Below are positions 33,898 to 36,961 of a DNA stretch of 64,000 nt, piece after piece. This DNA is from Escherichia coli (GTDB taxonomy: Bacteria; Pseudomonadota; Gammaproteobacteria; Enterobacterales; Enterobacteriaceae). The notes under the pieces were generated by a model that saw only the letters and a program-made list of their open reading frames with translations, did not search any database and was not told where the DNA came from. Each line of letters starts with the position of its first letter. The first letter of the stretch is position 1. Made by a program: the position numbers and the translations under genes. The stretch lies in assembly GCF_003334785.1 (NCBI RefSeq), contig NZ_QOWV01000002.1. One strand, 5' to 3'.

Positions 33898-34845
33898 ATG
33901 CGTGTGTTACTGGCACCGATGGAGGGAGTGCTTGACTCTCTGGTGCGTGAATTGCTGACCGAAGTTAACGACTACGATCTGTGCATCACCGAGTTTGTCC
34001 GCGTGGTGGATCAACTGCTGCCGGTAAAAGTCTTTCATCGCATTTGCCCTGAGCTACAAAACGCCAGCCGGACACCATCTGGTACGCTGGTGCGCGTGCA
34101 GTTGTTAGGTCAGTTCCCACAATGGCTGGCAGAGAACGCCGCCCGTGCGGTGGAGTTAGGTTCCTGGGGCGTGGATCTCAATTGCGGCTGCCCGTCGAAA
34201 ACGGTTAACGGTAGCGGCGGCGGGGCGACGTTACTCAAAGATCCTGAACTCATCTACCAGGGTGCAAAAGCGATGCGTGAAGCTGTACCGGCGCATTTGC
34301 CCGTCAGCGTGAAAGTGCGTCTGGGCTGGGACAGCGGTGAGAAGAAATTTGAAATCGCCGATGCGGTTCAACAGGCTGGCGCTACGGAGCTGGTGGTGCA
34401 TGGGCGGACGAAAGAGCAGGGTTACCGCGCGGAGCATATTGACTGGCAGGCGATTGGCGATATTCGCCAGCGGCTGAATATTCCGGTGATTGCCAACGGT
34501 GAAATCTGGGACTGGCAGAGCGCGCAACAATGCATGGCGATCAGCGGCTGCGACGCAGTGATGATTGGTCGCGGGGCGCTCAATATTCCCAACCTGAGCC
34601 GGGTGGTAAAATATAACGAACCGCGAATGCCGTGGCCGGAGGTGGTTGCTTTGCTGCAAAAATATACCCGTCTGGAAAAGCAGGGCGATACCGGGTTATA
34701 TCACGTTGCGCGGATTAAACAGTGGTTGAGTTATTTGCGTAAAGAATACGATGAAGCAACGGAATTATTTCAGCATGTTCGGGTGTTGAATAATTCCCCT
34801 GATATTGCAAGGGCTATTCAGGCAATTGATATCGAGAAACTCTAA
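33898..34845 (+). CDS. dusC: tRNA-dihydrouridine synthase C
   Basis: ORF from ATG at 33898 ([13 protein letters not shown]...), Dus-family TIM barrel. Confidence 0.92.
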
Positions 34846-34892
34846 AAAACCATAGTGATGTTTTTTGACAATGTGTTAGCTCTTTATCAATA

Positions 34893-35130
34893 GGCCGCAC
34901 GGTTGTTTGGTGGCGTCAAAATTGCCGAGGCGTTCCCTGAAGGCCGGGGCAGCCCACATGGATGTGGGCTGAGGGCGCGTTTTACAGGGATGTTACCTCG
35001 CGCCCGACCCGGTAGCCGTAAGGGATAAGTCGAGGGCACCGCGCAGCGGCGATTTTGTTCGCCAGAGCCCGGGGGTGCAGGGGGCGGCGGCGATTGGCCG
35101 CCCCCTGCGCGCTCCTTGCGCCAGTGATTA
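34893..35130. other. GC-rich, palindrome-dense intergenic element (unclassified)
   Basis: About 240 bp of high GC flanked by AT-rich DNA; perfect inverted repeats CAGCCCACAT-GG-ATGTGGGCTG, GGGCGCG-N19-CGCGCCC and GCAGGGGGCGGC-N8-GCCGCCCCCTGC. Confidence 0.5.
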
Positions 35131-35217
35131 TATGAAGCAATGCACATGACAGGAGCGCAACAGGATGAGAGACTGAAATATTCTCGTTATTTTCGGACCT
35201 GATGACATTAATTAATT

Positions 35218-35301
35218 TTAAAATATCATCTTAAATACGCCAGTCACCACCAGTAGCCCAATCAGGAAAATAATCAATACAGCCCAGAGTATAATTTTCA
35301 T
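35218..35301 (-). CDS. yohP: Small hydrophobic membrane protein (27 aa)
   Basis: Reverse-complement translation MKIILWAVLIIFLIGLLVVTGVFKMIF, below the ORF-track size cutoff; recognised from memory as YohP. Confidence 0.75.
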   Translation of the reverse strand: MKIILWAVLIIFLIGLLVVTGVFKMIF

Positions 35302-35524
35302 TGGCGTTCCTTTATTTGTGAGTGCTGAATAAGTATAGGAAAAAACGAAGCCCTTTGCCGTTATCCATAAACGATTAAGATAAATCGGAAGATATCATTC
35401 ACTTAGTGTATATTTTTCTGGATATGTCGTTTTATTGCCACTGATGTATTGCCACGCGAAACTAAAAAATATATCGCAACACACGGTAATCTCCGCGCAC
35501 CTTTTCTTACCTGATTATTCCCCC

Positions 35525-36961
35525 ATGAATCGTGATTCCTTTTATCCAGCCATCGCCTGTTTTCCGCTGTTACTGATGCTGGCCGGGTGTGCGCCTATGC
35601 ATGAAACCCGCCAGGCGTTAAGCCAGCAAACGCCCGCTGCACAAGTTGACACCGCATTACCCACGGCGCTGAAAAATGGTTGGCCAGACAGCCAATGGTG
35701 GCTGGAGTATCACGATAATCAACTCACTTCCTTAATTAACAATGCACTACAGAACGCACCGGATATGCAGGTGGCTGAACAGCGCATTCAGCTAGCTGAA
35801 GCCCAGGCGAAGGCAGTTGCCACTCAGGATGGTCCGCAGATCGACTTTTCGGCGGATATGGAGCGGCAAAAAATGTCGGCAGAAGGCTTAATGGGGCCGT
35901 TTGCTCTGAACGATCCGGCCGCAGGTACGACCGGCCCGTGGTACACCAACGGTACTTTTGGCTTAACGGCGGGCTGGCATCTCGATATCTGGGGAAAGAA
36001 TCGGGCGGAGGTTACTGCCCGCCTGGGTACGGTTAAAGCACGGGCGGCGGAACGCGAGCAAACCCGCCAATTGCTGGCTGGCAGCGTAGCCCGCCTGTAC
36101 TGGGAGTGGCAAACCCAGGCGGCGTTAAACACGGTCTTGCAGCAAATAGAAAAAGAGCAGAACACCATTATCGCGACCGATCGCCAGCTATATCAGAACG
36201 GGATTACTTCTTCAGTTGAAGGTGTGGAAACCGATATTAATGCCAGCAAAACCCGGCAGCAGCTCAACGATGTCGCGGGGAAAATGAAAATTATTGAGGC
36301 ACGGTTAAGCGCACTTACAAATAACCAGACAAAGTCATTGAAGCTTAAACCGGTCGCGTTGCCGAAAGTGGCAAGCCAGCTTCCTGATGAACTGGGGTAC
36401 TCCTTACTGGCCCGGCGGGCAGATTTGCAGGCGGCGCACTGGTACGTTGAGTCATCGCTAAGCACCATTGATGCGGCAAAAGCGGCATTTTATCCTGACA
36501 TCAACCTGATGGCCTTCCTGCAACAGGATGCGTTGCACTTAAGCGATCTGTTCCGTCATTCCGCGCAGCAAATGGGCGTTACGGCAGGCCTGACGCTACC
36601 CATTTTCGATAGTGGTCGTCTTAACGCCAATCTCGATATCGCAAAAGCCGAAAGCAACTTGTCTATCGCCAGCTACAACAAAGCGGTGGTTGAAGCGGTG
36701 AATGACGTGGCGCGGGCAGCCAGTCAGGTTCAGACACTGGCGGAGAAAAACCAGCATCAGGCGCAAATTGAGCGCGATGCCTTGCGTGTGGTAGGTCTTG
36801 CGCAGGCGCGCTTTAACGCGGGCATCATTGCTGGTTCCCGCGTCAGCGAAGCCAGAATCCCCGCGCTGCGTGAGCGGGCCAATGGCCTGTTATTGCAAGG
36901 GCAGTGGCTGGATGCCTCCATTCAACTCACTGGTGCGTTGGGCGGGGGTTACAAACGCTGA
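35525..36961 (+). CDS. mdtQ: Outer membrane efflux lipoprotein (NodT/OprM family), apparently intact
   Basis: 478-aa ORF from MNRDSFYPAIACFPLLLMLAGC (lipobox LAGC); the uninterrupted frame extends further upstream to 35435. Confidence 0.85.
   Translation: MNRDSFYPAIACFPLLLMLAGCAPMHETRQALSQQTPAAQVDTALPTALKNGWPDSQWWLEYHDNQLTSLINNALQNAPDMQVAEQRIQLAEAQAKAVATQDGPQIDFSADMERQKMSAEGLMGPFALNDPAAGTTGPWYTNGTFGLTAGWHLDIWGKNRAEVTARLGTVKARAAEREQTRQLLAGSVARLYWEWQTQAALNTVLQQIEKEQNTIIATDRQLYQNGITSSVEGVETDINASKTRQQLNDVAGKMKIIEARLSALTNNQTKSLKLKPVALPKVASQLPDELGYSLLARRADLQAAHWYVESSLSTIDAAKAAFYPDINLMAFLQQDALHLSDLFRHSAQQMGVTAGLTLPIFDSGRLNANLDIAKAESNLSIASYNKAVVEAVNDVARAASQVQTLAEKNQHQAQIERDALRVVGLAQARFNAGIIAGSRVSEARIPALRERANGLLLQGQWLDASIQLTGALGGGYKR

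Follow-up and report, generated by a model that had tools for sequence, protein, structure and literature searches.

The 27-codon open reading frame between dusC and mdtQ of a K-12-like Escherichia coli is the small membrane protein gene yohP, flanked by a dispersed structured repeat that probably replaced an ancestral terminator hairpin

The window, i.e. the whole stretch of 64,000 nucleotides of Escherichia coli DNA analyzed here, carries on its reverse complement a short open reading frame between the convergent gene dusC and the divergent gene mdtQ. The features of this locus are given below by position and strand, together with the basis of each assignment.

33898..34845, + strand: dusC (tRNA-dihydrouridine(16) synthase), convergent with yohP and used as synteny anchor (annotation)
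34907..35177, + strand (the better-folding, dusC-sense strand): GC-rich element of 271 bp, a dispersed structured intergenic repeat; the left edge perhaps lies ~10 nt further out, at 34897
35077..35158, - strand: two strong hairpins within the element, one directly after the other, at 35158-35109 and 35108-35077 (seen as inverted repeats I2 and I6 and in the fold)
35178..35217, - strand: AT-rich (28% GC), unstructured 3' flank of yohP, present in the K-12-type arrangement only (fold, alignment)
35218..35301, - strand: yohP coding sequence, 27 codons plus TAA, encoding MKIILWAVLIIFLIGLLVVTGVFKMIF (translation, RefSeq, NCBIfam, pN/pS)
35307..35312, - strand: Shine-Dalgarno sequence AAGGAA, the AGGA core of which ends 6 nt before the ATG (direct reading, flank alignment)
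35330..35339, - strand: putative -10 region CCTATACTTA with the hexamer TATACT at 35337-35332, of the sigma-S type and without a conserved -35 (flank alignment)
35525..36961, + strand: mdtQ, divergent from yohP, intact with 478 codons; its promoter region lies in the 223-bp spacer that also holds that of yohP

Translation of the reverse complement yielded MKIILWAVLIIFLIGLLVVTGVFKMIF followed by a stop, and the claim of a 27-codon hydrophobic ORF, made in a sequence-only reading of the window, was thereby borne out. In the predicted product, a single transmembrane helix spans residues 3-23 between Lys2 and Lys24 and includes Gly15 and Gly21. The coordinates and the GC content (35% for the ORF, 28% for its 3' flank, and 63% for the neighboring stretch at ~34907-35177) likewise agreed with the placement of the ORF in AT-rich DNA between a GC-rich stretch and mdtQ. 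As the window contains 330 ATG-started ORFs of 20-50 amino acids, a length of 27 codons alone is no evidence for a gene. Among these 330 small ORFs, yohP ranked first in hydrophobicity, with a best 19-residue Kyte-Doolittle mean of 2.96 (z = 3.4).

The same reading had named the ORF yohP, encoding a single-helix small membrane protein, and this was correct according to both the RefSeq annotation and NCBIfam. In RefSeq, the protein is listed as 'small membrane protein YohP' (WP_000691708.1) and was found annotated in every genome sampled, including J53, MG1655, LF82, and 2013C-4187; the MG1655 entry is b4679 (2,228,982-2,229,065). The match to NCBIfam NF011345 (PRK14762; YohP, equivalog) scored 67.3 bits (E = 7.7e-19) at a curated cutoff of 58 bits, and residues 1-27 aligned to profile positions 1-27 of 27. 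A solved structure of YohP was not found in the PDB.

The window originates from a K-12-like E. coli. Over positions 34800-35600 it matches J53 at 100% identity, and MG1655 is 99.97% identical across the 12 kb surrounding yohP; with three mismatches and one indel in 12 kb relative to MG1655/J53, the window is K-12-like, not identical. The YohP protein is identical to that of E. coli K-12 (b4679), and the dusC-yohP-mdtQ synteny as well as the -10 and Shine-Dalgarno signals are shared with the Salmonella orthologue encoded by STnc1330. Compared to these two, the gene itself shows no difference; variation among E. coli lineages and from genus to genus is confined to the 3' flank. A convergent dusC and a divergent mdtQ surround yohP in J53, MG1655, LF82, and 2013C-4187, and the dusC-yohP-mdtQ arrangement was also found in Escherichia, Citrobacter, Salmonella, and one Enterobacter species. 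On the mdtQ side, the 478-codon ORF of the window is 98% identical end to end with MdtQ of LF82. In the annotation of MG1655 and J53, mdtQ is a pseudogene of 1436 nt with a frameshift, and the A-run at 35672-35676 is one A shorter in J53.

Expression signals upstream of yohP were read from an alignment of the flanks. The Shine-Dalgarno box (AAAGGAA/AAGGGA) is conserved in Escherichia, Citrobacter, and Salmonella. Further upstream, the box TTTCCTATACTTA is nearly invariant across genera, and the sequence beyond it is not conserved. The TATACT hexamer has an upstream C, and this pattern of TATACT, upstream C, and no fixed -35 fits a promoter of the sigma-S type. Transcription would start near 35323-35326, which corresponds to a predicted 5'UTR of ~22-25 nt. 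Published work has described the Salmonella YohP transcript, first catalogued as the non-coding sRNA STnc1330, as sigma-S dependent, with a canonical sigma-S -10, and abundant in stationary phase. Salmonella 3xFlag-YohP was nearly undetectable in an rpoS mutant, a dependence that has been shown for Salmonella only. In E. coli, chromosomal YohP-SPA under its native promoter was elevated in stationary phase, in minimal medium, and under oxygen limitation. Epitope tagging, which had been proposed as a check on the ORF, is thus already published for E. coli (SPA) and Salmonella (3xFlag), and the protein is made. A lack of ribosome occupancy, or of a tagged product from the native locus, is contradicted by published data.

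For the comparative analysis, 80 orthologous Enterobacterales loci were collected with DusC as synteny anchor. A YohP ORF downstream of dusC and on the opposite strand was present in 18 species loci; YohP-bearing loci came from five Escherichia, nine Citrobacter-type, and two Salmonella subspecies loci, and from Enterobacter quasihormaechei, Franconibacter, and Buttiauxella. In all 18 species loci the ORF starts with ATG and has exactly 27 codons. Among the 16 distinct DNA alleles, 21 of the 27 codons vary synonymously only. Amino acid changes are limited to codons 3, 4, 7, 8, 10, and 13 and are all exchanges between I, L, V, and A, whereas K2, G15, G21, and K24 never change. The frame always ends at the same position, with TAA, TAG, or TGA as stop codon. 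With a mean pS of 0.585 and a mean pN of 0.042 (ratio ~0.07), yohP is under strong purifying selection at the protein level, and its conservation across species places the ORF far beyond chance. The suggested comparison of conservation with synonymous-site variation therefore came out in favor of a coding gene, with a fixed length of 27 codons and a pN/pS of 0.07. Within E. coli, yohP together with its promoter was found in 5422 of 5426 complete genomes (5355 at ≥99% identity), and it is a single-copy gene in complete E. coli genomes.

Absence of yohP from the locus was also observed. In the type strain of E. albertii (NBRC 107761; locus L008, 1090-1226), a deletion equivalent to window positions 35178-35359 removed yohP and its promoter; the same deletion took most of the repeat element and left a 75-bp remnant. 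In four Citrobacter species (L012, L013, L016, and L022), dusC adjoins mdtQ with no yohP in between. Within 2.5 kb of dusC, yohP was not found in Klebsiella, Serratia, Yersinia, Pectobacterium, and Erwinia. A disrupted frame in close relatives, which had been named as evidence against the gene, was not seen: the losses in E. albertii and the four Citrobacter species are clean absences, with no broken frame left behind. Hence, yohP is dispensable in some lineages, in agreement with the mild deletion phenotype published.

The properties of YohP are known from published work. It is an integral inner-membrane protein with carbonate-resistant localization, oriented mainly N-out/C-in, and forms SDS-resistant dimers through Gly15 (PMC7549839). 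YohP is recognized post-translationally by SRP and inserted via SecYEG or YidC, and in stressed cells the U-rich yohP mRNA bypasses SRP by direct binding to SecY or YidC. For membrane targeting of the mRNA, the coding sequence is enough and the UTRs are dispensable. The U content of 40% determined here for the yohP coding sequence is consistent with this mRNA-targeting work. Production of YohP leads to sublethal depolarization, psp induction, (p)ppGpp accumulation, nucleoid condensation, less protein synthesis, and slower growth; a yohP deletion mutant is more sensitive to ciprofloxacin and to H2O2/oxidative stress. The authors of these studies cautioned that most effects stem from premature or plasmid expression, and that the deletion phenotype is mild with almost no change of the proteome. 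In stationary phase, cells survive the high native levels of YohP, and the induction by SDS/EDTA and H2O2 described in earlier work was not reproduced. Unlike AcrZ, MgtS, and MgrB, YohP has no known specific protein partner.

Other small membrane proteins induced by sigma-S or by stress, such as YncL and YohO, resemble YohP in being single-helix proteins of <50 amino acids, although their sequences are unrelated and their loci separate. YncL is sigma-S dependent in Salmonella and, like YohP, causes depolarization and nucleoid condensation. YohO is encoded within the window by the second most hydrophobic small ORF (48561-48668, - strand), preceded by an AAGGAG Shine-Dalgarno sequence, and passes NCBIfam NF010225 with 80.1 bits at a cutoff of 57 bits.

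On the 3' side of yohP, the first 50 nt past the stop are unstructured in the K-12 arrangement (fold of 35170-35220 on the - strand, -0.3 kcal/mol). The first stable structures downstream are the two hairpins of the GC-rich element, which start ~60 nt away; the fold of 35072-35220 (- strand) reaches -55.7 kcal/mol (z = -5.2). These hairpins (35158-35109 and 35108-35077) are followed by ACCCCCGGG, without a U-run. A terminator scan of the dusC-yohP spacer found no terminator-like site in either the K-12 or the LF82 arrangement, and no hairpin with U-run on the yohP (-) strand. No E. coli 3'-end map for yohP was found in the literature, and a search of supplements of Adams 2021 gave no entry for yohP, dusC, or these coordinates. 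From the position of the element, yohP transcripts probably run into it. A sub-threshold Rfam match to AgvB on the yohP 3' flank (22.9 bits at a threshold of 56) was dismissed as noise, as were the other sub-threshold matches. At the opposite end of the spacer, directly past the dusC stop, lies AAAAAACCATAGTGATGTTTTTT (34846-34870, + strand), in which a weak stem of A and T only is placed between an A-run and a T-run. This could be a weak bidirectional terminator-like feature, although the terminator scan did not report it.

In other genera the 3' flank is organized differently. The dusC-yohP spacer of Salmonella, Citrobacter, and Enterobacter measures 32-103 bp, lacks the element, and contains one GC hairpin or a REP. 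There, yohP has its own hairpin, which starts 5-10 nt past the stop and has a folding energy of -13 to -27 kcal/mol. In Buttiauxella, the hairpin of yohP is followed by CCCCUUUUUAUUU, i.e. a U-run. Some Citrobacter loci (L015, L019, L020, and L021) carry a classical REP, GCCGGATAAGGCGTTTACGCCGCCATCCGGC, in this spacer and others a plain hairpin, which indicates that different repeat families colonized the yohP-dusC spacer depending on the genus. A REP pair in E. whittamii (L007, 5751-5828) scores as Rfam naRNA4 with 72.5 bits. In E. coli, the ancestral terminator hairpin is gone in both spacer arrangements (see below). We infer that the element is an insertion of the Escherichia lineage that displaced the ancestral hairpin, and that it is neither a dedicated part of yohP nor a canonical terminator. 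With the hairpin replaced by the repeat, E. coli yohP transcripts would have to either enter the repeat or be ended by Rho.

The element lies in the path of both the yohP and the dusC transcripts and is unannotated in RefSeq and in MG1655. A consensus fold of 13 aligned copies, drawn on the K-12 + strand, comprises 77 pairs with 98.6% of cells paired. Compensatory double changes were found at 14 pairs compared to 0-3 when the partners were slid, and the observed values were reached by 0 of 500 shuffles for four of five measures and by 477 of 500 for the count of further pair types; these values have to be read with care, as there are only a few copies, these are related to each other, and the same alignment had served to derive the structure. 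The + strand folds better than the - strand (-113.8 versus -96.6 kcal/mol). Helix 9 varies only by G.U to G.C changes, and together with several other G.U pairs it forms only on the dusC-sense strand in K-12; variation of this kind means that helix 9 cannot form on the other strand.

Loop 1, retained with its hairpin in 12 copies, is AUGGAU in every one of them and agrees with AYGGAY. Loop 2 is AGGGAU or AGGGAC, with a purine at position 2. These loops (AUGGAU/AGGGAY) resemble the CsrA SELEX consensus. In its architecture, the element is similar to the TwoAYGGAY RNA (Rfam RF01731), with a multi-stem domain, a long outer closing helix, and two hairpins with GGA-containing loops. It differs from this family by an extra 3' domain of ~100 nt, its behavior as a dispersed repeat, and a second loop off the AYGGAY pattern. 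TwoAYGGAY was the only Rfam family with a marginal score for the element (29.7 bits for the K-12 copy and 29.9 bits for the copy in the alx-sstT spacer), and the covariance model gave no match in three Klebsiella loci, the LF82 copy, or the E. whittamii copy. Membership in the family was rejected on score (29.7-29.9 bits at a gathering threshold of 43 bits) and on loop sequence. The TwoAYGGAY family has been proposed to bind CsrA. Nevertheless, CsrA binding by the element found no support in E. coli CsrA CLIP-seq and integrated gene tables, in which no CsrA effect is flagged for dusC, ybjE, or sstT.

The element occurs with a median of three copies per E. coli genome. Apart from the dusC-yohP spacer, it occupies the aqpZ-lysO and alx-sstT spacers, and it is also found in Klebsiella, where copies are numerous (13 places in one chromosome, some of them in tandem). 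In the dusC-yohP spacer of 5426 E. coli genomes, the K-12 orientation was present in 3304 (~61%) and the inverted one in 2000 (~37%). In the spacer of LF82 (L003, 1116-1502) and of 2013C-4187, the element is inverted, 88% identical to the K-12 copy, and surrounded by unrelated flanks. Identity between the K-12 and LF82 types resumes only 2 nt past the yohP stop, and dusC is one codon longer in the inverted arrangement. A simple inversion in place was ruled out by the unrelated flanks, their lengths (61 + 40 versus 39 + 76 nt), and the identity of only 88%. The two forms of the spacer look rather like two old alternative alleles or independent insertions. All six species-level loci of Escherichia that retain yohP carry the element in this spacer, and both orientations were also found in Escherichia species other than E. 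coli. The polymorphism of the dusC-yohP spacer is therefore old or recurrent.

The observations above bear on several other explanations of the locus. That the open frame arose by chance in AT-rich DNA could be argued from the abundance of short ORFs (330 starting with ATG in the window), but conservation, annotation, and published experiments all contradict it; this reading is refuted, and we assign it practically no probability. A locus that is primarily a regulatory small RNA of the STnc1330 kind, with the ORF incidental or secondary, would match the first annotation of the Salmonella transcript as non-coding, and dual-function RNAs do exist. The pN/pS of 0.07, the saturating synonymous change, the fixed length, and the conserved Shine-Dalgarno sequence, however, demonstrate selection on the peptide and not on the RNA sequence, and the YohP protein is abundant, which makes this explanation highly improbable. 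While the selection pattern excludes a purely non-coding sRNA, it would leave room for an added RNA-level role of the yohP transcript. It has to be considered as well whether YohP is the toxin of an unrecognized type I toxin-antitoxin pair, i.e. a depolarizing peptide kept under control by a small RNA that is antisense to its gene or overlaps it. With TisB, DinQ, HokB, and Ibs/Ldr, YohP shares the small hydrophobic helix with flanking positive charges (lysines in YohP), depolarization, nucleoid compaction, and a link to dormancy or tolerance, and the parallel to TisB, DinQ, and Hok-type toxins was drawn by the YohP authors themselves. A sigma-70-like match (ATGACA-16-TATCAT, 10 of 12 positions) lies antisense to the yohP 3' end at 35202-35229 (+ strand), its -10 being formed by yohP codons 25-26, and the equivalent in LF82 (L003, 1487-1514, + strand) matches at 9 of 12. 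Promoter-like sites antisense to yohP are nevertheless no more frequent than by chance (1 found versus 1.3-2.0 expected), no Rfam sRNA maps to the yohP locus, PADLOC gave no match, and the yohP-dusC gap of 32-57 bp in Salmonella/Citrobacter leaves little room for an antitoxin gene. In contrast to those toxins, YohP has no known or detectable antitoxin RNA, is single-copy, and is sublethal at its native levels, which are high in stationary phase without killing; the published effect, too, is sublethal. Its control appears to be by sigma-S, not by SOS or antisense RNA. We therefore regard a toxin-antitoxin pair as very unlikely.

For the GC-rich element, the sequence-only reading had suggested the 3'UTR or terminator region of yohP. 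By position this held, since in K-12 nothing stable lies between the yohP stop and the element hairpins ~60 nt downstream, and the presence of the element in the spacer at 6/6 Escherichia species-level loci retaining yohP points in the same direction. A dedicated element that evolved as part of yohP is a different matter. Copies of the element also occupy loci that have nothing to do with yohP, as well as Klebsiella genomes. Of 5426 E. coli genomes, 2000 carry it inverted and 3304 in the K-12-like form, and it is missing in Salmonella, Citrobacter, Enterobacter, and Buttiauxella, whose yohP is followed by a hairpin of its own. On the yohP strand no hairpin is followed by a U-run, pairing in helix 9 and at several other G.U positions is restricted in K-12 to the dusC-sense strand, and the published localization of the mRNA does not need the UTRs. 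The notion of a dedicated element is thereby largely refuted, and we consider it quite unlikely. The reading that we prefer for the ORF is that it is yohP, a bona fide and already characterized gene, to which this analysis adds nothing new on YohP biology (probability about 0.93).

Based on the literature, largely on premature or plasmid expression, accumulation of the YohP helix in the membrane would cause a sublethal loss of membrane potential. This loss would set off a 'metabolic silencing', in which the phage-shock response is induced, (p)ppGpp accumulates, the nucleoid condenses, and protein synthesis declines, and such silencing may in turn raise the tolerance to some stresses. At the RNA level, the yohP transcript would in the ancestral arrangement end at a single hairpin just past the stop, common to the convergent dusC. 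In Escherichia, a mobile structured repeat would have replaced this terminator hairpin, and E. coli yohP transcripts would then enter the repeat, or be ended by Rho, before dusC. A further step, namely that the orientation switch gives yohP and dusC lineage-specific 3'UTRs, could alter termination, stability, or protein binding (e.g. by CsrA) of the yohP mRNA, and so the deployment of YohP by lineage; we think this unlikely.

The reading of the raw sequence picked out a real 27-codon gene below ordinary ORF cutoffs, and the checks it proposed all spoke for this gene, which serves as a positive control for the scan. YohP is already a model for the insertion of small membrane proteins and for stress-induced 'metabolic silencing', and what is new here is peripheral, namely the proposed replacement, in the Escherichia lineage, of the yohP terminator hairpin by a dispersed structured repeat, both orientations of which are present within the species E. 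coli. This dimorphic repeat could matter when yohP expression is compared between strains or when the native yohP 3'UTR is defined in constructs.
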